A stretch of DNA of 64,000 nt from Bacillota bacterium (GCA_050952125.1 JBMNKK010000003.1:111408-175407), one strand, 5' to 3'. Positions 38,931-47,982 are shown, numbered from the stretch's first letter. Notes: a model not told the origin generated them from the letters alone. Program-made: numbers and translations.

Positions 38931-40577
38931 TTATTGGCCGCCGCCCTCGATCCACCAGAGTTCGGGGAACATGGCTCCGGCGTAGCCCCAGGTAACGCCC
39001 TTTACCTTCTTATGCATGCAAGCGGGGCTGCTGTTCGCATACAGGAAGATGTACGGGAGCTCTTCGTTCACGATCTTCTGGGCTTCCACGTAGATCTCTT
39101 TGCGCGCGGCCTGATCCATCTCTGTCCGGCCCAGTTCAAGGAGTTCGTCCAGCCTCTCGTTCTTGAACTCCACGTCGTTGAACCCAACCAGCTGGCCGTT
39201 TTCGTCTACGGCGGCGTCAGAGTGGAAGAACAGGTAGAAGTCAGGGTCTACTCCCAGGCTCCACGCCAGAGCGTAGGACTGGAACTTGGCCACATCGAGG
39301 TACTGCTCGCAGAGCACCGCCCACTCGATGTATTCCACAGTTACGTTGACGCCGAGTTCCTTCCAGTTTTGCTGGGTGATGAGCAGCGCTGCCTCAAGGA
39401 TCTTGTTTCCCGTTGAGGTTAGGAGCTTGACGTCCATCTTCTGGCCGTCCTTCTCGCGGATGCCATCGGCTCCAACCTTCCAGCCGGCCTGATCCAGGAG
39501 CTCCTTCGCTTTATCAGGGTTGTACTCATAAGGATTGAGTTGGTCGCCTGCATATGCCCAAGAGATCATCGAAATGTTGCCGTTCATGACCTCGCCATGG
39601 CCCATGAGCACGTCGTCAACGATCTGCCTGCGGTTGGTGCCGTACATGAGGGCCTGCCTTACGAGTTTGTCCTTGAAGATGGGGTCAGTCTGTTTCAGGC
39701 CGATGTAGGTGTATCCGTTCTGGGTGATAGGCTTAAACACGTGCGTATCGGAAAGGGCTTCCTGAATCCTTTCGACATCGTCAGGCGGAATCGCGCCCAT
39801 GTAGTCGATGTCGCCCTTCTCCAAAGCGGCAAGCATAACCTGGTTATCGCCGTAGAACTTCCAGATAACCTTCTGGATGTACGGGCCTTCGCCGAAGTAG
39901 TTCTCGTTGGCTTCCAGCATGAGGTACTGGCCCTTTTCCCACTCGCCGAACTTGTAGGGGCCGGTTCCTATGGGGTCCATATTCGCCGGGTTTTCCTTCA
40001 TCTTACCGATCTCGGTGGTTTCAAAGAGGTGCTTTGGTATGATCCCAATCACCAGTTTTGAGAGGATCGGCGCATAGGGCTTATCCAGGTGAAGCTCGAT
40101 TGTGTAGTCATCGGGAGCTGCTATCTCGGTGATGGGCCTGAAGTCTGTAGCCCTGATGCCCAGGTAATCGGGATGCTTTATGGCATCATAGGTGTACTTG
40201 ACGTCAGCCGACGTAAACTTGGTGCCGTCATGCCAGTAGACGTCATCTCTCAACTTGAACGTCCAGATTAGGCCGTCCTCGGTGACCGTCCATTCTCTGG
40301 CCAGGTCGCCAATGATCTCCATGTTCTCGTTGGCTCTCACGAGAGCGCTGTAGACCCTGGAGTTGATGGCGCCCGACGGGGTGTCAGTCGAGAGAATGGG
40401 GTTGAAGATAACCGGGTCGCCTGTCATCCCGAAAACAATTTGGCCTCCGGCGACAGGTTCATCTGAACCTCCGCCGTTTCCGCCTGTGGGGGGGGCCGGA
40501 GCCTTAGGTCCGCACGCGCCAAGGAGCAGCGTGAGGATCATGATTGAGGCAATGGCCGCAATGAAACTTTTTCGCAT
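38931..40577 (-). CDS. appA: peptide ABC substrate-binding lipoprotein (AppA-like)
   Basis: Lipobox LGAC; FNPILSTD, WHDG...ADVKYT, PIGTGPYKF, VRQAL; ATG40577 after GAGGAGG. Confidence 0.9.
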   Translation of the reverse strand: MRKSFIAAIASIMILTLLLGACGPKAPAPPTGGNGGGSDEPVAGGQIVFGMTGDPVIFNPILSTDTPSGAINSRVYSALVRANENMEIIGDLAREWTVTEDGLIWTFKLRDDVYWHDGTKFTSADVKYTYDAIKHPDYLGIRATDFRPITEIAAPDDYTIELHLDKPYAPILSKLVIGIIPKHLFETTEIGKMKENPANMDPIGTGPYKFGEWEKGQYLMLEANENYFGEGPYIQKVIWKFYGDNQVMLAALEKGDIDYMGAIPPDDVERIQEALSDTHVFKPITQNGYTYIGLKQTDPIFKDKLVRQALMYGTNRRQIVDDVLMGHGEVMNGNISMISWAYAGDQLNPYEYNPDKAKELLDQAGWKVGADGIREKDGQKMDVKLLTSTGNKILEAALLITQQNWKELGVNVTVEYIEWAVLCEQYLDVAKFQSYALAWSLGVDPDFYLFFHSDAAVDENGQLVGFNDVEFKNERLDELLELGRTEMDQAARKEIYVEAQKIVNEELPYIFLYANSSPACMHKKVKGVTWGYAGAMFPELWWIEGGGQ

Positions 40578-40920
40578 TGGGTTCCTCCTCTCAAAATGGT
40601 GCGCAGGGCATTTCAGTGAGTGTAGCACTTTCGCCCGATGATAGAAAGACTCATACAGACGTTTTTTTATTCGGCGGTCGGAGATGCCATTCCTTCTTGT
40701 GGAAAACACATGCAACACAGGATTTGAAGCAGAGGGCTAACAGCAGCGTCAGTTAGCTGATGAGGAGCGGGCTCCCTCCGAACGGGTGGTAGAAGCATAG
40801 TTGATCCCGCAGCATTCAGGAATGTATAAATATGTATCACTGCATGAGGCAAGCTGTCGCTACCTTATGATTTGTCAAAAGGTTCTGAATGACACGGGAA
40901 TAAACTTGCGGAATAGATAG

Positions 40921-40940
40921 GCCCGGGAGTACTCCCGGGC
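40921..40940. terminator. 20-bp perfect palindrome downstream of the MTase-GT4 gene
   Basis: GCCCGGGAGTACTCCCGGGC; on the minus strand followed by CTATCTATTCC. Confidence 0.6.
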
Positions 40941-40970
40941 TTCATCTCTCCTTCGAGTATTGTTTCCGAG

Positions 40971-42662
40971 CTAGGTGAGTGCAGCCTTCCGGCGATCTGA
41001 AGATCGCGCGTGCTCAGTTGCAGAGAACAAGCAGTCTTCGAGCGAGTCCACTGCTCTCCCGATTGTGAAATCCTGAGCTGTTGACAGCCCCGCGGCTGAC
41101 AGCGCCTCGCACGCGCCAGGGTTACTTAGCAGAAATGCGATTCCCTTCGCCAGAGAGTCTGCATCGCCGGGATCGCCCAGCAGCGCGTTTTCTCCCGCGC
41201 GCGCGTATGCCCGAATGCCGCCGCAGTCGGTTGCCACCACAGGCGTGCCGGAGGCCATGGCTTCGAGGGGGGGCATCGCGAAACCTTCGTACCATGATGT
41301 GAAGAGAAAGAGACCGGAGGTGCGGTATATTTCCGCGAGAATATCCTGGCTCGGCTTGACAATGAACTCAAGCGGGTATTCGGTCCCCCCTATTTGGGGC
41401 CGGTTCTGACATACCCATTTGACCCGGAAACGAAACCCTGCCTTCCAAACACGCCATAGCGCGCGCAAGGCCACCTGAAAACCTTTGAATCGTAGCATAG
41501 GGTTGCCGACCAGGAGAATTGTGTCCGGATCGCGGTGTTTTCCGGGGCGGAAAAGCTCGAGATCCACACCATTTGGAACGATCATGGCTTTACGCCCGTA
41601 CCTCGTATTTAGAATATCGGCTATCGTCGCAGAGGCAGCAGCGAGACAGCACGGTTGCGAATAACAGTGTTTGAGGTACTGACGATATGTCATCTCGTCG
41701 TACCTTCCCGTGAGCTCACCGAAAAGCCATTCGTTGCCCTGCTCCCAATAGACCACCGGAGGACGTGCTCGAACCAGATCCGGGAGCTGACCCATCCATC
41801 CGGCCATAACGACGTCGGAATCTTGTACATAGGGAGTAATGTCATCTTTTGCCGGTACCAGTACTTCCTTGTCAACTTTGACATCGTACCAATCGGGGAG
41901 TACGGGTCCCTCCGGCGGCGCTTTTCGTACTGCGACGATCCGGTGCCCGCGAGACTTCAGCTGCTTCATCTGCTCAAGCAGCATCTTGAGTCCGCCCGTT
42001 AGGTTTGTGTGGGGGATGACGTATGAAATCGTAAGGTGCCTTCGTTCGCTCTTATTCCGGACGGCCGCAGCCGCTTTGACGAAGTCATCCTGGCTATATG
42101 AGTGCTCCGGCACATGATCAGGCCATATCGTGATAATCTGTGCCCCGTTGTCTCCAAGGGGCAGTACCTGATAGGAGAAGTCGTGCTCTGCGAAGTCCAT
42201 CGGCCCCCAGCGGCTCCGGTGACACTCATACTCGTTACCGAGATACGCCTCTTGTTCCGAAGGATGCAAAGGTGTGGATATTACAAGGCATTTTCTCGAA
42301 TGAGACTTAAGTTCTCGGATGACGTCTAGCCCTTCCTCTTTTGTGAAGTGCTCTAGAACATCGACGAGAAGGACGACGTCGTAAGACGGGAGACCGTTCA
42401 GGACACCTGGGACTGCCCCGTAATAGACGTTGTCATACGCGTAGTCATGTATTGGATTCCGGTACTCCGGGAATGCCTCTACACCGTCAATTCGCACCGC
42501 CCAGGAGTCTCTCTCGTACCTGCCCAAGGAGATGTCAAGCGATTCCCTGAGCAGCATTCCGTACTTGCCGAAACCGATCCCGATGTCAAGGATAGTCTTG
42601 GGATTCTCTCTGCGGACTCTGCTTACGATCGACGGTATGGCCTCGTACCAACTTGCCGGCAT
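40971..42662 (-). CDS. class I SAM-dependent methyltransferase fused to GT4 glycosyltransferase
   Basis: ILDIGIGFGKYG, DGVE, DVLEH (MTase); PNGVD, KG, EGFAMPPLEAMASG (GT4 EX7E); likely ATG42662 after GGGGGGAG (alternative 42710). Confidence 0.88.
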   Translation of the reverse strand: MPASWYEAIPSIVSRVRRENPKTILDIGIGFGKYGMLLRESLDISLGRYERDSWAVRIDGVEAFPEYRNPIHDYAYDNVYYGAVPGVLNGLPSYDVVLLVDVLEHFTKEEGLDVIRELKSHSRKCLVISTPLHPSEQEAYLGNEYECHRSRWGPMDFAEHDFSYQVLPLGDNGAQIITIWPDHVPEHSYSQDDFVKAAAAVRNKSERRHLTISYVIPHTNLTGGLKMLLEQMKQLKSRGHRIVAVRKAPPEGPVLPDWYDVKVDKEVLVPAKDDITPYVQDSDVVMAGWMGQLPDLVRARPPVVYWEQGNEWLFGELTGRYDEMTYRQYLKHCYSQPCCLAAASATIADILNTRYGRKAMIVPNGVDLELFRPGKHRDPDTILLVGNPMLRFKGFQVALRALWRVWKAGFRFRVKWVCQNRPQIGGTEYPLEFIVKPSQDILAEIYRTSGLFLFTSWYEGFAMPPLEAMASGTPVVATDCGGIRAYARAGENALLGDPGDADSLAKGIAFLLSNPGACEALSAAGLSTAQDFTIGRAVDSLEDCLFSATEHARSSDRRKAALT

Positions 42663-42693
42663 TGTCTTCCATCTCCCCCCTGTTACGCTACCT

Positions 42694-42720
42694 ATATCGG
42701 AATCTCGCATAGGACTTTAA
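42694..42720 (-). promoter_or_regulatory. sigma28 (SigD/FliA) promoter for the MTase-GT4 gene
   Basis: Minus strand TTAA-N15-TCCGATAT, the same hexamers I recall for the B. subtilis hag promoter. Confidence 0.7.
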
Positions 42721-42723
42721 GCC

Positions 42724-42751
42724 TAAACCTGCGTTCTCGCTTTTCCGATAT
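42724..42751 (+). promoter_or_regulatory. sigma28 promoter for the GT2-TPR gene
   Basis: TAAA-N16-TCCGATAT, 36 nt upstream of ATG42788. Confidence 0.65.
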
Positions 42752-42787
42752 CAAGAGCGGCAGGTTGAATCGGGGGGAGTCCTAAGA

Positions 42788-45382
42788 ATGGAGCATACAA
42801 CTTGCGATGGCCACATCGCAGACTACGCTAGATCCGCCGCTTACGAGAAGGCTCTTACGAGTAGCGAGATCATCAAGGCCGTCACGCACTTCAGGCACTT
42901 CAGGGACAAAAAGTATCGCAAGACTTGGCTTTCGCGTGCCCGAGCGTGCGACAAGATCGGTAGAGCGCGCTTGTCAGTGGGGCGAGTTGCAGATGCATAC
43001 TGCGGCCGCCGCATTGTGTTTGTCGGCCCTGAGTTGGCGGGCAATGGACTTGCCGTTCCGGAGGCCGCGGTCTCCTTGGCACGCGATCTCAACGCTCTCG
43101 GGTGCACTGTGGATTTGGTCACGCGCGTCCTCCCCGAGTTTCTTCCTGCCGAGTTATTGGAGGTGGCAGGCGACGTACGGTTCGTTCGTCCGCTTCAGAC
43201 CTACTCGTCGGCCATTGAGGATGATGCTCCAACGGTCATCGCCTTCTGGCTCCCGCTTTCCATACAACTCTGCGGCGCAGGCATCCGGCATGTTTGTATC
43301 TGGGATGCCCGTAGCAGCCGGCTCGTTGACGGCGACGCTGTGAGCGGACTTGACGCGGCTCTCATCGCGCATCTTGCTCCTTTACCTGATGTCGTGCTGG
43401 GAGCATCTAAACTCCCCTCCTCCGGCCGCAAGGTATTCCCGCCGGATGCTGCCACGCTCTCCGACTTGGTTGAAGCAGCATATCCTCCGCCTCCGCACTT
43501 TCCGCAACTTCCAACCGTTTCTGCCTGCATGATCGCCAAAGATGAGGAAGGAATAATCGAGGGCTGCTTTCAATCCCTCGTTTCCTGCGTGGACCAGGTA
43601 GTGCTTAACGACACGGGTTCGACGGACCTCACCTTTGAGATCGCCGAGGCCTACGGGGCTGAAGTTATCCGGACGGAGTGGAAAGATGACTTCTCGGTCG
43701 CGAGGAACGCCAGCCTCGAAATGGCCAAGTGCGACTGGATTCTGGCTATAGATGCCGATGAGCGGATAGCAGAGGGGTCTCAGGTAAAGCTGAGGGAAGC
43801 CGCCTTATCCGAAATGGATGCCCATTTGGTGACTGTTGCTAACAGGGTTGACGCCAGCGTCAAGACGGTTCCTGTCCTCAGGCTGTTCCGAAACCGGCCC
43901 TATCATAGATTTGTAGGAGCGATTCACGAGCAGGTTGCGCCGAGTATAAAAGGGCGCGTAGGAGTCGCTCAAGTGGTTCTGGATCACATCGGATACGGGA
44001 AGGCAGTCAGCCAAGTCAAGTTGAAGAGAGGGCGCAATGTTGCCCTACTGCTGAAAGAACTCGGCCGGGTGAAATCGCCGCAAGATCCGACGTACCCATA
44101 CCTTGCCTATCAAGCGGGCGGCGAGCTGCTTCAGTCCGGGAGTCCGATAGAAGCTCTACCGTTGCTACGCCAAGCGGTTGAACTATCTGCTTCCGATGCG
44201 ATCTACCGGCCTTCGGCACTGCTCTCGCTGTGTCAAGCGCTGATCCGTTTGGGTCGCATTTCTGAAGCTGAGTTGTGTGCGATAAACGCCCTTGAGACGT
44301 ATCCCGGATTTCTAGATATCGCAGAAGTTGTTGCATCGGCCCTCCTAGACCACAATGAGCCGGAGCGTGCGGAAGACATTCTGAACAAAGCGTTGGCATC
44401 ACCCCCAAGTCCGATAGTACGGAAAACCGATGGGGCTGATACGTACCTTCTGAGCACACTGAGAGCTAGGATCTCCCTGGGATTGGGTGATGCCGATTCC
44501 GCACTCACCTACATACAGAACGCGTTGACCCAGAATCCTGACTATGGGGATGCTCAGAGGCTCCTAGCGCTGAATTGGCCCAGCCGAGTCCGAGATTGTC
44601 TCAGAAGCGTTGGAGCCACTACGGTTCTCCCAGCAGCCCAAATACTGATGGTCCGCAATATGATTGAGGCAGCGCACGAGGCTGCCGCCGCGATCGGCGA
44701 CCATAGCACCCTAGGTCTGATTTCGATTGTCATCAAGGATTTTGCTGCGGCTCGGGAACACTACGCAAAGTCGCGCGATCCTCGTGATAAGGACAAGGCG
44801 GCGATCTTGGAGCGGTGTGCTCTGCAGAGCGATTCTAGGGGCGATGCACGCGGCGATACTTACGAAACTCCTATCTCGCCTCTGGCCGCGAAGGTTCTTG
44901 CCGGCCAGCCCGTGAACTCGGGTGAAGTCGACGACTCCCTTCGAGTGCTCGAGTTCTTACTGGATATCGGACAGAAAGGCGTGTTCGCAACCGCCGTAGG
45001 CTGCCTCAGCGGGTTCCAGGCCGGTGAGATCCTTGCCGGGAGCCTTCTCTATCGGAAGGGGCTCATGGACGACGCCAGGGACTTCCTCGAGCGTAGGCAA
45101 TACGACGCCCCTGAGTGCCTGAAGATGTTGGGAGACATCGAGTACCTGACGAAACGGTACGAAAAGGCCGCTTACTACTACAGAGAGCTGTCCGGTCCAC
45201 GGCAACTGAGTCCGACCGAGTCCTTCAGGCTTGCCGACTCCTTATTGCGTCTAGGTGACATCAAAGCAGTAGCTGATGTCGTGCGAGAAGCGAGAACCCT
45301 CTACCCTGAAGACGGCAAACTGGAAAAGCTCGCAGAGATATTGCAGCGGAGCCCTTTGTTCAAGAACATCGCCATCGAGTAG
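42788..45382 (+). CDS. GT2 glycosyltransferase with TPR-like C-terminus (flagellin-glycosylation type) and N-terminal extension
   Basis: SACMIAKDEE, DTGSTD, WKDDFSVARN, IDADE (DxD), GAIHEQ, HIGY, RN; helical TPR-like repeats; GGGGGGAG RBS. Confidence 0.88.
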   Translation: MEHTTCDGHIADYARSAAYEKALTSSEIIKAVTHFRHFRDKKYRKTWLSRARACDKIGRARLSVGRVADAYCGRRIVFVGPELAGNGLAVPEAAVSLARDLNALGCTVDLVTRVLPEFLPAELLEVAGDVRFVRPLQTYSSAIEDDAPTVIAFWLPLSIQLCGAGIRHVCIWDARSSRLVDGDAVSGLDAALIAHLAPLPDVVLGASKLPSSGRKVFPPDAATLSDLVEAAYPPPPHFPQLPTVSACMIAKDEEGIIEGCFQSLVSCVDQVVLNDTGSTDLTFEIAEAYGAEVIRTEWKDDFSVARNASLEMAKCDWILAIDADERIAEGSQVKLREAALSEMDAHLVTVANRVDASVKTVPVLRLFRNRPYHRFVGAIHEQVAPSIKGRVGVAQVVLDHIGYGKAVSQVKLKRGRNVALLLKELGRVKSPQDPTYPYLAYQAGGELLQSGSPIEALPLLRQAVELSASDAIYRPSALLSLCQALIRLGRISEAELCAINALETYPGFLDIAEVVASALLDHNEPERAEDILNKALASPPSPIVRKTDGADTYLLSTLRARISLGLGDADSALTYIQNALTQNPDYGDAQRLLALNWPSRVRDCLRSVGATTVLPAAQILMVRNMIEAAHEAAAAIGDHSTLGLISIVIKDFAAAREHYAKSRDPRDKDKAAILERCALQSDSRGDARGDTYETPISPLAAKVLAGQPVNSGEVDDSLRVLEFLLDIGQKGVFATAVGCLSGFQAGEILAGSLLYRKGLMDDARDFLERRQYDAPECLKMLGDIEYLTKRYEKAAYYYRELSGPRQLSPTESFRLADSLLRLGDIKAVADVVREARTLYPEDGKLEKLAEILQRSPLFKNIAIE

Positions 45383-45438
45383 GCTTAGAGCACCCGGATC
45401 TGCTAAGCAATAGTGGGCCTTGCAGGTAGGCGCAAAGT

Positions 45439-45467
45439 GAGAGAGCCCGGGAAACCCCGGGCTCTCT
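45439..45467. terminator. hairpin between the convergent GT2-TPR and flagellin genes
   Basis: AGAGAGCCCGGG-AAAC-CCCGGGCTCTCT. Confidence 0.75.
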
Positions 45468-45498
45468 ATCATCTGTTGACTATCTGTGCCGATTGCGC

Positions 45499-46632
45499 TT
45501 AGCCTAGCAGCTTCAGAACCGACTGGGTCTGAACGTTGGCCTGGGCGAGCATCGCCGTGCCAGCCTGCTGCAGGATCTGGTGCCTTGTGAAGTTCGCCAT
45601 CTCGAGCGCCATGTCGACGTCTCTGATTCGGGACTCTGCAGCAGTCAAGTTCTCGTGGGCTGTCTGCAGGTTATTGATGGTATGCTCAAGCCTATTCTGA
45701 TAGGCACCGAGCGTGGAGCGCTGAGACGAGACTGTCGAGATAGCCTTGTCTATGGCCGCCAGGTTGGCATCAAATGAAGCGATATCGGTGACATCTACGT
45801 CTTGGATGCCAAGCTTCTCGGAGCTCATGCTCTGGATCCTGAATCCGAGGCTCTGCCCGGCTCCGCTGTTGGCGCCAATCTGGAGCTTGACGTCGCCTTC
45901 AACGACGTCGAACGTGTTGTTGCTCGACAGTCCGGACAAGTCCTTGGTGGTGGTGCCCTCATCCCCATCGTCGGTGACGGCGAAGGTGATACCGAACTTG
46001 TCGAACTCGATGGTGGTCCCTTCGGCCAACGTCAGCGTGGTTCCCACGTCTACCGTCTGGCTCAGGCCGCCTTGCGTCAGAGTTATCGTGGCGTCCGACG
46101 CATTTACAGTAACCGTGTAGTCGGTGCCGACCCAAGCGCCGCTCGTGTCTACTATGCTCAGTAGTGAGGTTGCGGATCCGTCGACGTTGGAATCAGCAGT
46201 GATCGTCGCACCAAGAGTACCGTTCAGGAGTTTCATACCGTTGAACTCGGTACGATCGCTGATACCGTCAATCTCCTTGACTAGCTCGTTGATCTCTTCC
46301 TGGATCTTCATCCGGTCCTCTTCGGTGTTGGTTCCGTTGCCAGCCTGGACCATGAGCTCTCTCATGCGCTGCAGGATCGAGTGGGTCTCGTTGAGAGCGC
46401 CTTCTGCAGTCTGGATAAGAGAAATGCCGTCCTGCGCGTTCCTCGCTGCCTGGTTCAGACCACGGGTCTGCGATCTCATCTTCTCAGAGATTGCGAGACC
46501 TGCGGCATCGTCAGCAGCCTTGTTGATCCGGTAACCTGAAGACAGCTTTTCGAGGGACTTGGACATCAATCCGCCCGTGACCGCGAGGTTCTTCCATGCG
46601 TTAAGGGCGCTGATGTTGGTGTTGATCCTCAC
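45499..46632 (-). CDS. fliC: flagellin
   Basis: MRINTNISAL, KLSSGYRINKAADDAAGLAISEKM, LGAYQNRLEH, AESRIRDVD, QAGTAMLAQAN. Confidence 0.97.
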   Translation of the reverse strand: MRINTNISALNAWKNLAVTGGLMSKSLEKLSSGYRINKAADDAAGLAISEKMRSQTRGLNQAARNAQDGISLIQTAEGALNETHSILQRMRELMVQAGNGTNTEEDRMKIQEEINELVKEIDGISDRTEFNGMKLLNGTLGATITADSNVDGSATSLLSIVDTSGAWVGTDYTVTVNASDATITLTQGGLSQTVDVGTTLTLAEGTTIEFDKFGITFAVTDDGDEGTTTKDLSGLSSNNTFDVVEGDVKLQIGANSGAGQSLGFRIQSMSSEKLGIQDVDVTDIASFDANLAAIDKAISTVSSQRSTLGAYQNRLEHTINNLQTAHENLTAAESRIRDVDMALEMANFTRHQILQQAGTAMLAQANVQTQSVLKLLG

Positions 46633-46639
46633 TTTTGAT

Positions 46640-46754
46640 ATACCTCCCTGTATCTGTCGCCCGCGTCCTTTGCAGGCCTAGTGGAGCTGTTCCTACTGCT
46701 CCGGGGCGCCGTCCGGCTTCTTGGGAACAGCCGTACTTCATCCTTGTTATCGAA
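46640..46754 (-). promoter_or_regulatory. flagellin 5' leader with CsrA-type GGA hairpins and sigma28 -10
   Basis: Minus strand: TTCGATAA (-10; weak -35), GCC-GGAC-GGC, CCTGC-AAAGGAC-GCGGG, ATAC-AGGGAG-GTAT over the RBS. Confidence 0.65.
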
Positions 46755-46794
46755 ACGCGATTGAGACGATACATAGCGGATATCAAAATGAGTC

Positions 46795-47982
46795 TCAAGT
46801 CCTAATGGCTTCGATAGACTCCACGCACTCTTTCACCAGGTCATCAACTGGAAGCGCCTGTTCAGCTTCCATAACCAGGTCTAGTCGCGGTTTGGTTACG
46901 GGATGTTTCGGCACGAACACAGTGCAGCAGTCTTCATACGGGAGGCATGAGACGTCGTAGGTTCCGATGCTTTCGGCGATCTTGACGATTTCGTTCTTAT
47001 CAAAGCATAGAAGCGGGCGAAGTACGGGGAGCCCTGCAACTTCCTCGATGACCGCCATGCTCTCTAGAGTTTGGCTGGCAACCTGGGCCAGGTTTTCGCC
47101 GGTGAAGATGGCCAGAGCGCCCACCTTCTTGCCTAACTCGGTCGCGACTCTCATCATCATTCGCCTCATGATCGTCACCCGGTACTTCTCCGGACAAAGC
47201 TCGATGATGGCTGTCTGGATTTTCGTGAAGTGCGCGATGTAGAGGTTCATCGATGGATTATATTCTCTGAGCATGCGCCAGAGCCGCACAACTTTATCTC
47301 TTGCCTTCTCACCCGTCATGGGGAAACTCCAGAAGTGCAGGGCGTCGAGCGCAACCCCGCGTTTCATTGCCATATACGCCGCCACAGGACTATCGATGCC
47401 TCCCGACAGCAGGACCATTCCTTTTCCCGAGGAACCGAGAGGAAGTCCTCCCATTCCCCTGGTTTCTCCCCAATAGATGTATGTCCCGTCGTGCCGTACC
47501 TCAATGGAAATCGTGAAGGATGGGCTGTGGACATCGACTGAGAGCCCAAGGCCGGCGTCAAGCACCGCGGCGCCCACTTCAACGCATATCTCCGGCGAGG
47601 TTACCGGGAACGACTTGAGCGAGCGGCGAGCCTCGATCTTAAAGGTGGGGGGTGCCGCAGCGTGCCCCACGTGAGCCGTCCTATCGCCAAGAGCCCTCCG
47701 GGCTGCTTCGATAGCACCTTCCTTGATGAGCTCAAGGTCGTTCTCAACCTTAAGGGCTGCGCTGGCGGCCACGACACCGGGTACTTTGGCCATTCGCGCC
47801 ATCAAGTCGCGACTCATCGGCATACCGTAGAGAAACATCCTGCCATAAGACCTCTGGAGTCTCGAGCCCGGGTACTCTCTCATGATGCTGCGTAAGTGGT
47901 CAACCAGGGCCCCTTCAAAGTCAGGGCGGTTCTTTCCCTTAAGGCTGATCTCACCGTATCTGACTAGCAGTACTTCCTCCAT
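46795..47982 (-). CDS. thiI: tRNA 4-thiouridine synthase (THUMP + PP-loop)
   Basis: RYGEISLKGKNR, LSGGIDSPVA, TGENLAQVASQT, PYEDCC. Confidence 0.95.
   Translation of the reverse strand: MEEVLLVRYGEISLKGKNRPDFEGALVDHLRSIMREYPGSRLQRSYGRMFLYGMPMSRDLMARMAKVPGVVAASAALKVENDLELIKEGAIEAARRALGDRTAHVGHAAAPPTFKIEARRSLKSFPVTSPEICVEVGAAVLDAGLGLSVDVHSPSFTISIEVRHDGTYIYWGETRGMGGLPLGSSGKGMVLLSGGIDSPVAAYMAMKRGVALDALHFWSFPMTGEKARDKVVRLWRMLREYNPSMNLYIAHFTKIQTAIIELCPEKYRVTIMRRMMMRVATELGKKVGALAIFTGENLAQVASQTLESMAVIEEVAGLPVLRPLLCFDKNEIVKIAESIGTYDVSCLPYEDCCTVFVPKHPVTKPRLDLVMEAEQALPVDDLVKECVESIEAIRT

Follow-up and report, generated by a model that had tools for sequence, protein, structure and literature searches.

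We propose that three genes at positions 40971-46754 of a 64,000-nt stretch of Bacillota bacterium DNA (GCA_050952125.1, contig JBMNKK010000003.1:111408-175407; hereafter the window) join the sole flagellin gene of the genome, in its usual chromosomal place, to what the sequences suggest is a cytoplasmic O-glycosylation module of two enzymes. The locus is best read as serving flagellin glycosylation, and we put the probability of this arrangement at roughly 0.55. Pfam searches bore out the gene content and orientation given by the first-pass annotation: a flagellin gene on the minus strand; a GT2-TPR gene on the plus strand, convergent with it; and, divergent from the GT2-TPR gene, a minus-strand gene for a methyltransferase-GT4 fusion (MTase-GT4). 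The divergent gap between the two enzyme genes is 125 bp long and contains two back-to-back sigma-28-type boxes. As had also been noted, no other flagellar or nucleotide-sugar families occur among the 40 scanned of the window's 55 ORFs of at least 110 aa. Two further descriptions fell away: the supposed orphan flagellin is the only flagellin of the genome, and the supposed stand-alone island is the conserved hag locus, syntenic through the genus and family.

The flagellin gene (hag/fliC type; 45499-46632, minus strand) has a GTG start and encodes 377 aa matching Flagellin_N (5.5e-50), Flagellin_C (5.2e-30), and the NCBIfam flagellin Hag model (3.5e-103); the second Flagellin_N match of the genome is FlgL, adjoining FlgK. 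Its variable region is indeed rich in Thr, Ser and Asp (15.3%, 10.7% and 11.3% of residues 141-290). FliA and FlhA are encoded at 270-274 kb of contig C3, away from the flagellin locus, and a flgM-flgN-flgK-flgL-fliW-csrA-fliD-fliS-fliT cluster lies on contig C4. Through the genus and family the hag locus has the order opp - GT2-TPR - hag - thiI - iscS. This order is unchanged in the same-genus genome G318, with flanking proteins 67-90% identical; in same-genus G401 the fetched stretch starts at GT2-TPR and follows the same order onward, an opp match being absent from the stretch; and in G405 and G412 the GT2-TPR/flagellin pair sits beside thiI. GT2-TPR homologues occur in 12 of 20 relatives, including all five same-genus genomes, and lie within ~1 kb of flagellin in the 10 relatives with both coordinates given; a full flagellin match is absent from G403, and in G176 flagellin is ~2 kb from GT2-TPR. 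We conclude that GT2-TPR belongs to the hag locus in the present lineage, and that among the three genes only MTase-GT4 is an add-on. The central domain of the flagellin needs neither enzyme, because four relatives (G406, G407, G292 and G417) carry flagellins 52-71% identical over full length and have no GT2-TPR or MTase-GT4 match, a point that counts against the module.

Sequence elements around the flagellin gene are shared within the family. Its leader (46643-46676, minus strand) comprises a GGGAGG Shine-Dalgarno sequence (46643-46648) and a hairpin with GGA in the loop (46660-46676), of the form CGCAA(A)GGAUGCG, found 5' of flagellin in all seven family loci compared; by analogy with the B. 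subtilis hag leader this arrangement is CsrA-site-like, and fliW and csrA are both encoded in the genome. Further upstream is a probable sigma-28-type -10 box, TTCGATAA (46747-46754, minus strand), with a poor -35 (TGTA); a CGAT(A/T) box occupies the corresponding position in seven of seven family loci (the window and L059-L064). About 30 nt upstream of this -10 lies the element AGGACTTGAGACTCATTTT (46785-46803, minus strand), present in six of the seven family flagellin upstream regions and not seen in L063. The genome holds no further copies of this type of element; the string AGGACTTTAAGCCTAAAC (42711-42728, plus strand), which bears both -35 boxes of the divergent gap, resembles it. In the interval where the GT2-TPR and flagellin genes converge, a GC-rich 12-bp hairpin (45440-45467, both strands) folds with z-scores of -4.23 (plus) and -3.30 (minus), equalled by 0 of 200 shuffles. 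It is likely a bidirectional terminator, unflagged by the consensus terminator scan because it has no T tail.

The GT2-TPR protein (42788-45382, plus strand; 864 aa) matches Glycos_transf_2 (5.1e-14) and several TPR families. In phmmer searches against the PDB, its GT2 (GT-A) catalytic domain (residues 239-426; 43502-44065, plus strand) proved GmaR-like, matching GmaR chain 22ao_A at E 2.4e-29 with the full protein and 1.5e-30 with the domain alone, in an alignment that spans residues 5-191 and conserves DTGSTD and AIDADE (the DxD region). GmaR is reported to transfer GlcNAc onto flagellin (PMC9638930), and the earlier idea that GT2-TPR primes flagellin fits this homology of the catalytic domain. 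The peptide S-glycosyltransferases SunS and ThuS also have a GmaR-related GT2 domain followed by helical repeats, but the similarity of GT2-TPR to them is much weaker: chains of this type (7msn, 7msk) match at ~1e-15 with the full protein and 1e-11 to 1e-13 with the domain alone, and the NCBIfam SunS model at 6.3e-19, far under its cut-off of 350. SunS and ThuS act on bacteriocin precursor peptides, whereas the window locus has no precursor or lantibiotic-type genes.

Like Listeria monocytogenes GmaR, GT2-TPR is the product of a flagellin-serving gene, with TPR repeats after a homologous GT-A domain. Its C-terminal region (residues ~440-864 plus stop; 44105-45382, plus strand) matches TPR_2 (2.9e-15), TPR_14 (2.1e-14), TPR_16 (1.1e-13) and TPR_19 (1e-8). 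GmaR is also the anti-repressor of MogR, and the homologous GT domain with its long, ~430-aa helical-repeat C-terminus would be compatible with GT2-TPR doubling as a regulator, giving the locus a control role beyond glycosylation. We consider this extremely improbable, as only the 204-residue GT-domain chain of GmaR was matched, the PDB chains of GmaR residues 141-637 (the TPR/antirepressor part) giving no match at E<=0.01, and mogR is described only from Listeria and the B. cereus group (PMC7793685). GT2-TPR differs from GmaR not only in having no detectable similarity to its TPR/linker/antirepressor part, but also in length, GmaR being 637 aa (PMC9638930), in its extra 235-aa N-terminal domain with no family assignment, and in having a second, extending enzyme as partner. 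This domain (residues 1-235; 42788-43492, plus strand) has no Pfam match, is kept in six relatives at 22-33% identity, and aligns mostly with GT4 proteins among Atlas structures at a TM by query of 0.53-0.66, below the bar for naming a family; it is possibly a single Rossmann half akin to a GT4 N-terminal domain, which we offer as a lead only.

The MTase-GT4 protein (40971-42662, minus strand; 563 aa) starts at an ATG at 42662 preceded by the Shine-Dalgarno sequence GGGGGGAG. We rejected an alternative start at 42710, as the alignments of six homologues (L013, L014, L015, L024, L026 and L027) all begin at residue 1 of the protein started at 42662, and the longer frame would also enclose the predicted -10 box. 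The GT4 domain, of GT-B fold and retaining type (residues ~215-563 plus stop; 40971-42020, minus strand), matches Glyco_trans_1_4 (PF13692, 4.6e-23) and Glycos_transf_1 (PF00534, 5.7e-22), finds GT4 enzymes in the PDB by sequence (for example MshA-like 7qsg, 1e-13), and has an EX7E-type pair, E459 and E467, unchanged among 17 aligned homologues. The N-terminal domain (residues 1 to ~185; 42108-42662, minus strand) is predicted to adopt a class I SAM-methyltransferase fold: its AlphaFold model has a pLDDT of 78.6, and the PDB matches listed by Foldseek are all SAM methyltransferases (probability 1.00, TM by query ~0.5). In its motif LD[IV]G.G.GK.G, residues D26, G28, G30 and G32 are unchanged throughout both sets of sequences compared, of 8 and 17 members. 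Methyltransf_23 matches six of eight family members at E<=0.01, the window protein scoring 6e-4, under the curated cut-off. With SAM motif I, the class I fold and EX7E, both domains look active. A terminator-like GC-rich hairpin (40921-40940, minus strand; 8-pair stem, 7 G-C) stands 3' of the stop codon, before the opp operon.

A class I fold carries no substrate information, and the methyltransferase domain might act on the flagellin polypeptide, at Lys or at Ser/Thr-linked groups, instead of on sugar; FliB-type flagellin methylation exists in other bacteria (PMC13317340), and N-methyl-threonine is reported from C. difficile type A (PMC8861647). Fusion to a glycosyltransferase favours a sugar acceptor, however; the GT/methyltransferase fusion of C. 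difficile type B is proposed to methylate rhamnose (PMC5207246), and the fold matches include a sugar O-methyltransferase, EvdMO1, if only at rank 50. We therefore judge methylation of the polypeptide very unlikely.

Reading MTase-GT4 as a flagellin-glycan enzyme draws on its neighbours in other genomes. We compared 24 full-length homologue loci, of which genomes supplied 8 and metagenomes 16. The fetched stretch includes a GmaR-like GT2 domain in 14 and flagellin in 9, the latter counting 6 of the 8 loci taken from genomes; gene order varies among Moorella, Fonticella, Limnochordaceae and other lineages. In a relative of the same family (G409), MTase-GT4 is divergent from the flagellin gene itself. 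The 15 loci whose fetched DNA is without flagellin include many short contigs. Homologues tied to spore-surface loci, which the first-pass annotation had named as grounds for abandoning its idea, were not seen; the association with flagellin nonetheless reached only the minority of loci just given, and at least four, with between 2.4 and 8 kb of flanking DNA on one side or both, have unrelated neighbours: a lipoate ligase, a radical SAM protein and 5-FTHF cyclo-ligase (L080), a 1269-aa Big_4/CBM96 protein (L083), a BspA-LRR protein (L076), and a GT2_3 + MshEN protein (L078).

These unrelated or surface-protein neighbours are what would be expected if GT2-TPR alone modified flagellin, with a single, Listeria-like O-GlcNAc, and MTase-GT4 served another acceptor (a wall polymer, exopolysaccharide or other surface protein) while parked, and perhaps co-regulated, at a recombination-prone locus. 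In the same direction, MTase-GT4 is found in none of the five same-genus genomes, though all keep the flagellin-GT2-TPR pair, and the methyltransferase domain belongs to a large family (2589 representatives at E<=0.001) made up mostly of stand-alone proteins, ~160-280 aa long and variously placed, with such stand-alone relatives in a Wzy/Wzx polysaccharide cluster (L090). Yet the GmaR-like and flagellin neighbours recur in lineages that are distant from one another and differ in gene order, the fusion directly adjoins flagellin in G409, and the fusion genes of both G409 and the window bear a sigma-28-type -10 box. We regard a separate acceptor for MTase-GT4 as rather unlikely, and favour its action on flagellin together with GT2-TPR.

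The promoter-like strings reported earlier in the divergent gap are exact, real sequence features, set back to back. The site for MTase-GT4 (42694-42719, minus strand) is TAAAGTCCTATGCGAGATTCCGATAT, which parses as TAAA-N14 or TTAA-N15 followed by TCCGATAT; that for GT2-TPR (42724-42751, plus strand) is TAAACCTGCGTTCTCGCTTTTCCGATAT, or TAAA-N16-TCCGATAT. The -35 boxes are separated by 3-4 bp, and the -10 boxes end 31 nt (MTase-GT4, ATG 42662) and 36 nt (GT2-TPR) upstream of Shine-Dalgarno-preceded ATGs. In the 2,371,714-bp genome, TAAA-N14-17-CCGATA[AT] has two matches on both strands together, both within the gap and correctly oriented; the N14-16 form is expected by chance 0.05 times per 64-kb window. 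The promoter argument rests on position, not enrichment, because the genome-wide count of two is about the chance expectation. The genome encodes FliA/SigD (TIGR02479, 272 bits, above cut-off; C3:270360-271034) and its anti-sigma factor FlgM (PF04316, 1.4e-16), and xxCGATAx boxes precede flgM, two of four mcp genes, and flagellin.

That strict matches are no more frequent than chance, that neither gap site has the canonical N15 spacing (TAAA-N14 and TAAA-N16), and that the gap has imperfect palindromic symmetry (ATATCGGAA/TTCCGATAT and CTCCCCCC/GGGGGGAG), with the two -10 boxes as inverted-repeat partners, would all suit unused strings: the symmetry would be a relic of inverted duplication, and the genes would be read from housekeeping promoters or by low constitutive transcription. 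We think this unlikely. A consensus scan found no sigma-70-like site in the gap. Both spacings fall inside published ranges, the B. subtilis sigma-28 consensus being TAAA-N13-16-GCCGATAW and the C. difficile spacing from TAAA to CG 15-18 (PMC3865298), and the GT2-TPR spacing is that of the site upstream of flgM in this genome, TAAA-N16-GACGATGA. The -10 box type also recurs 5' of non-orthologous glycosyltransferase genes: among 17 regions taken from related loci, which are kin and hence non-independent, 7 have a CGATA[AT] box within 200 nt upstream of such a gene, where 1.41 would be expected, and in the two same-genus genomes whose loci were fetched the box stands at -31 from the GT2-TPR ATG. 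In C. difficile, moreover, experiments have shown that flagellin glycosylation genes depend on SigD, as reported for strain 630 (type A) (PMC3865298).

That precedent also bears on the first-pass view of the locus as the window's best candidate for an undescribed system, which we do not uphold. GT2-TPR flagellin transferases are already known (GmaR; C. difficile CD0240/GT1), and a primer transferase working with a bifunctional GT/methyltransferase is reported from the type B flagellin system of C. difficile (PMC5207246). There, in the order fliC - GT1 - GT2 - GT3 (CDR20291_0241-0243), the first transferase adds GlcNAc and the bifunctional enzyme extends it and is proposed to methylate (PMC5207246). 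The window follows the same logic, primer plus bifunctional extender, but with non-homologous parts. The C. difficile extender (CDR20291_0242) is described as a GT2-family PF00535 domain with a PF08241 methyltransferase domain that adds rhamnose, whereas the window fusion has a GT4 (GT-B) domain with an N-terminal Methyltransf_23-like domain; we accordingly rejected its membership of the CDR20291_0242 type. Regulation differs likewise: the C. difficile genes are apparently read through from the fliC promoter, whereas a separate sigma-28-type site precedes each of the two enzyme genes here, which are not co-directional with flagellin. Searches of the 96.6%-complete genome detected neither RmlC nor NeuB (PF03102), an outcome that fits the use of common sugars and counts against both a rhamnose-adding CDR20291_0242 scheme and nonulosonic-acid glycosylation of the Maf kind. 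In the Firmicute Paenibacillus alvei, work by Janesch et al. in 2016 reportedly found flagellin O-glycosylated via glycosyltransferase genes beside hag, with motility needing the modification. The motility requirement is also given in PMC5109656. The transferase families of P. alvei bear on the newness of the MTase-GT4 partner.

We suggest that the GmaR-like GT-A domain of GT2-TPR would start the glycan by attaching one sugar to Ser/Thr residues in the flagellin central domain, the surface-exposed presumptive acceptor; this sugar is most likely GlcNAc, drawn from housekeeping UDP-GlcNAc. The TPR region would hold unfolded flagellin ahead of export. Judging from domain content and linkage, the GT4 domain of MTase-GT4 would then extend this sugar with a common nucleotide sugar, and the SAM-methyltransferase domain would O-methylate the glycan. 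If the back-to-back SigD/sigma-28-type promoters drive both enzyme genes, the enzymes would be expressed alongside late flagellar genes such as flagellin, flgM and the mcp genes, after hook-basal body completion and FlgM export. Flagellin glycosylation of this logic is known; what appears new is the second, extending partner, an uncharacterised MTase-GT4 fusion beside a GmaR-like enzyme. Present in 4 of 400 sampled genomes of the phylum and 1 of 20 close relatives, the fusion is a sporadic extension module that probably arrived by horizontal transfer.

The three genes between 40971 and 46754 encode a flagellin (45499-46632, minus strand; 377 aa from a GTG start; Flagellin_N 5.5e-50, Flagellin_C 5.2e-30), a convergent GT2-TPR protein whose GT2 domain is accompanied by many TPR matches (42788-45382, plus strand; 864 aa) and, divergent from the latter, the MTase-GT4 fusion (40971-42662, minus strand; PF13692 4.6e-23, PF00534 5.7e-22 and a weak methyltransferase match). 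Pfam domains and strands thus bear out the layout proposed in the first-pass annotation. The mechanical reading frame of the fusion begins at 42710; because six homologues start in alignment exactly at the ATG at 42662, which is preceded by the ribosome site GGGGGGAG, we take the fusion to be 563 aa long, which leaves 125 bp between it and GT2-TPR. A 12-bp GC hairpin (45440-45467) separates the convergent genes, a terminator-like hairpin (40921-40940) lies downstream of the fusion gene, and serine and threonine make up 26% of the flagellin central domain. As first proposed, no other flagellar or sugar-nucleotide gene was found among the 40 scanned of 55 ORFs of at least 110 aa in the window; those scanned are housekeeping genes (mutS, mutL, miaA, a miaB-like gene, hflX, three opp-type transporters, thiI, iscS, rny, recA, recX, cinA, lexA and others).

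The same annotation had called the flagellin an orphan in a stand-alone island, and here we disagree. It is the sole flagellin of the genome, the other Flagellin_N match being FlgL, beside FlgK; the rest of the flagellar apparatus is encoded elsewhere, FlhA and FliA on this contig at a distance of about 113 kb and flgM to fliT on contig 4. This is the native hag locus, syntenic in relatives: the same-genus genome G318 has the window's order of opp, GT2-TPR, flagellin, thiI, iscS, PP-loop and acetyl-CoA synthetase-like genes, with flanking proteins 67-90% identical, and same-genus G401 keeps it from GT2-TPR onward, where the fetched stretch starts, with no opp match in that stretch. Three genomes outside the genus but within the family or order (G405, G412, G409) also have flagellin and GT2-TPR as a pair, next to thiI or in its vicinity. 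Of 20 relatives, 12 have a GT2-TPR homologue, among them all five same-genus genomes; it lies at most about 1 kb from flagellin in the 10 relatives with both coordinates printed, while a full flagellin match is missing from G403 and about 2 kb separate the two genes in G176.

Within this frame the contents vary. The window GT2-TPR is only 35-38% identical to those of relatives, and the flagellin central domain cannot be aligned with same-genus flagellins. We therefore read the hag locus, with its conserved flanks against a divergent GT2-TPR and a swapped flagellin centre, as a cassette-exchange hot spot in a conserved frame. The window flagellin is 52-71% identical over its full length to those of G406, G407, G292 and G417, relatives that have neither a GT2-TPR nor an MTase-GT4 match. 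Across the family, the flanking genes are 59-90% identical and the central domain is swapped; comparison of window positions 38931-46794 with four relatives' loci (L059, L060, L062, L063) also shows GT2-TPR inverted in some genomes and missing in others. Joint transfer of GT2-TPR with MTase-GT4 finds no support, identity to the GT2-TPR proteins beside other fusions (34-36%) being not above the same-genus 35-38%.

Residues 239-426 of GT2-TPR match the solved glycosyltransferase domain of GmaR, the Listeria flagellin O-GlcNAc transferase (22ao; E 2.4e-29), and both DTGSTD and AIDADE are conserved; the next matches, at about 1e-15, are to SunS and ThuS chains. GmaR puts GlcNAc on flagellin, and recognition of this substrate has been proposed for its TPR (PMC9638930). 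The C-terminal 430 aa of GT2-TPR are likewise TPR-like, with no match to PDB chains of the GmaR TPR/antirepressor part. The first 235 aa (42788-43492, plus strand) match no Pfam family and are conserved in relatives, which share 22-33% identity with the window protein; structural comparison offers a lead that they may correspond to one Rossmann half of a GT4 enzyme on its own, with TM scores by query of 0.53-0.66 against Atlas structures, under the bar for naming a family. This reading is made plausible by a metagenome protein (L092:5663-7741) that joins GT4, GT2 and TPR in a single chain; it adjoins a stand-alone methyltransferase of the same family as the fusion's.

The N-terminal 185 aa of MTase-GT4 carry, in aligned homologues, an invariant LD[IV]G.G.GK.G motif and further invariant residues. 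Methyltransf_23 matches six of eight fusion members at E<=0.01, and the listed Foldseek matches of the domain model (pLDDT 78.6) are SAM methyltransferases only. In the GT4 domain that makes up the C-terminal part, the EX7E pair is invariant. Full-length homologues span 535-617 aa at 44-59% identity and are common in Firmicutes; those listed come from Moorella, Neobacillus, Paenibacillus bovis, Cytobacillus, Gracilibacillus, Veillonellaceae and Limnochordaceae, and the named sources among the 120 listed also include Atribacteria/Caldatribacterium. At L027:9130-10763 (G321:C7:75129-76762) the two parts occupy overlapping frames, residues 1-256 and 238-549, either by a frameshift or as a naturally split form. 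The methyltransferase domain also occurs by itself: 64 of 80 metagenome loci carry it alone, in frames of 175-254 aa from the match start (63 loci not cut by a contig end), and among 1.84 billion representatives searched, 2589 matched at E<=0.001; the best 150 are mostly 160-280 aa long, with nine of at least 500 aa. These stand-alone proteins (L087-L150; P0129-P0271) form a large unannotated family 37-48% identical to the fusion's N-terminal domain; among five loci viewed, neighbours were glycan-related in two (L090, with Wzy/Wzx, and L092) and unrelated in three.

We compared 24 full-length homologue loci besides the window, eight from genomes (L013, L014, L015, L016, L024, L026, L027, L061) and 16 from metagenomes (L071-L086), leaving out L025 and L065-L070 as duplicates. 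A GmaR-like GT2 domain occurs in the fetched DNA of 14 (genomes 8/8, metagenomes 6/16) and a flagellin in nine (genomes 6/8, metagenomes 3/16), several flagellin-negative loci being contigs of only 1.6-8 kb. Four loci are better flanked, L080 by a full 8 kb and L076, L078 and L083 by 2.4-6 kb on one or both sides (for L083 on both, with about 4-5 kb each), and their neighbours are unrelated: housekeeping, BspA-LRR, GT2_3/MshEN and Big_4/CBM96. The link between fusion and flagellin is thus strong but not exclusive. The refuting condition set in the first-pass annotation, that such homologues be tied to spore-surface loci, has a mixed outcome: no spore-coat or sigK-type context was seen among annotated neighbours of the fusions or stand-alone methyltransferases, but a flagellin was present in the fetched DNA at only nine of 24 loci.

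Both promoter strings quoted in the first-pass annotation are exact. One sigma-28-type site precedes MTase-GT4 (42694-42719, minus strand; TAAA-N14-TCCGATAT) and one precedes GT2-TPR (42724-42751, plus strand; TAAA-N16-TCCGATAT); their -35 boxes lie 3-4 bp apart, and the two sides of the gap mirror each other as inverted repeats (ATATCGGAA/TTCCGATAT and CTCCCCCC/GGGGGGAG). A search of both strands of the 2.37-Mb genome for TAAA-N14-17-CCGATA[AT] gave two matches, both in this gap. A total of two is about the chance expectation (0.05 per 64 kb); the non-chance feature is that both sites share one gap, face outward and stand 31-36 nt before start codons with a strong ribosome site. Their spacings fall within ranges quoted in PMC3865298. 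The genome encodes FliA/SigD (272 bits) and FlgM, and has TAAA-N16-GACGATGA upstream of flgM and GTCGATAT and GACGATAA 51 nt before the first in-frame start codon of two of four mcp genes; the upstream regions of the other two and of motA have no such box. The flgM site lies in an 84-bp gap downstream of a gene for a 137-aa protein with weak zinc-ribbon Pfam matches, directly upstream of flgM (L012:4740-5153 = G000:C4:582739-583152). The flagellin has a -10-type box, TTCGATAA (46747-46754, minus strand), with a poor -35.

Similar boxes recur in relatives. CGATA[AT] occurs within 200 nt upstream of glycosyltransferase genes in 7 of 17 regions of related loci, where the background of the individual loci predicts 1.41; the count of seven overstates independence because the loci are kin. 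In two same-genus genomes GTCGATAT and GCCGATAT are placed at -31 relative to the GT2-TPR ATG, GCCGATAT precedes the Moorella GT2 gene, GCCGATAA precedes the fusion gene of L013 and GT2-TPR of L015, and CCCGATAT precedes the fusion gene of G409, with the flagellin's own box 86 nt away on the opposite strand. RNA contigs over 40500-47200, from a single sample sequenced in two metatranscriptome runs (X19, X20) in which DNA carry-over is possible, are few, short and of low depth, cover parts of GT2-TPR and flagellin and none of MTase-GT4, and cannot show starts or levels; run X18, labelled RNA-Seq, is probably DNA. Seventeen runs (X1-X17; labelled bioreactor, anaerobic digester, sludge or plain metagenome) contain 96-99% of sampled words of 40900-46850. 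The organism seems common in such reactors; all 20 rows with at least part of the stretch span 13 studies, and 15 rows may be the assembly's source.

The window (46785-46803, minus strand) and five of six family relatives (L059, L060, L061, L062, L064) share an element, AGGACTT-N4-CTCATTTT, some 30 nt upstream of the flagellin -10; the genome has no further copy of it elsewhere. A similar string at 42711-42728 (plus strand) contains both -35 boxes of the divergent gap, and in G409 the element sits between the divergent flagellin and MTase-GT4 boxes. Its assignment as a sigma-70 promoter proved inconsistent across relatives; it may be a regulator site or a UP-like element. The flagellin leader (46643-46676, minus strand) has a GGA-loop hairpin and a Shine-Dalgarno containing GGA, kept in all seven family loci, and fliW and csrA are on contig 4. 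B. subtilis has a FliW-CsrA-flagellin partner switch, and by analogy the leader looks like part of such a system.

Judged from sequence, the three genes are best read as a system in which the Ser/Thr-rich flagellin central domain is O-glycosylated in the cytoplasm in two steps. GT2-TPR would prime the flagellin, probably with GlcNAc; the fusion would then extend this first sugar and methylate the glycan; and both enzymes would be produced together with late flagellar genes. The original proposal, that GT2 primes, GT4 extends and the methyltransferase caps, is thus partly supported, the primer role fitting the GmaR homology. RmlC and NeuB were not found in the 96.6%-complete genome, so common nucleotide sugars would have to serve. 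FliD (613 aa; L012:9063-10904 = G000:C4:587062-588903) has an F5/8 type C domain inserted at residues 389-520 (7e-12), a discoidin of carbohydrate-binding type. Such a sugar-binding module is a curious feature of a filament cap when the filament itself is probably glycosylated.

The system had also been put forward as the window's best candidate for something undescribed, but the route proposed for C. difficile type B flagellin follows the same plan, and we see no new class. According to PMC5207246, GT1 adds GlcNAc there and a GT2-family/methyltransferase fusion adds rhamnoses, whose methylation by that fusion is proposed. The proposed logic, a primer followed by a bifunctional glycosyltransferase/methyltransferase, is alike, but the extenders are not homologous (GT-B fold here, GT-A in C. 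difficile) and the methyltransferase families differ. The wiring differs too: each enzyme gene here stands behind its own divergent promoter-like site, whereas the C. difficile genes appear to be read through from fliC. In C. difficile strain 630, flagellin glycosylation genes were shown to depend on SigD (PMC3865298). The literature searched, exclusive of supplements and the P. alvei study, holds no description of an MTase-GT4 fusion in flagellin glycosylation.

We put at roughly three in ten a wider, tentative reading: that MTase-GT4 is a self-contained, horizontally moving glycan-extension cassette with its own sigma-28-type promoter, able to join GmaR-type flagellin loci across widely differing Firmicutes. 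It is suggested because the full-length fusion is sporadic, present in one of 20 close relatives (G409, of the same family) and four of 400 sampled phylum genomes; because it occupies different hag-locus positions in the window and G409 with a CCGATAT box upstream each time; and because the G409 copy (51% identical) is no closer than the Moorella copy (53%). Two more relatives have the GT4 part inside a different 711-aa frame.

The hag region illustrates rebuilding by cassette exchange. Gram-positive flagellin glycosylation is known in few organisms, and the enzymes extending the first sugar are poorly defined. A compact three-gene set using common nucleotide sugars only would be easy to reconstitute for flagellin glyco-engineering. 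If the fusion is a flagellin-glycan extender and methylase, this would name a family annotated, in the named sources among the 120 listed, only as 'glycosyltransferase', and its 2589 stand-alone relatives would also gain a name. Were the cassette reading true, a one-sugar flagellin coat would become a longer, methyl-capped glycan in a single step, through a new bifunctional flagellin-glycan enzyme family in which a widespread, unannotated stand-alone methyltransferase is fused to GT4.
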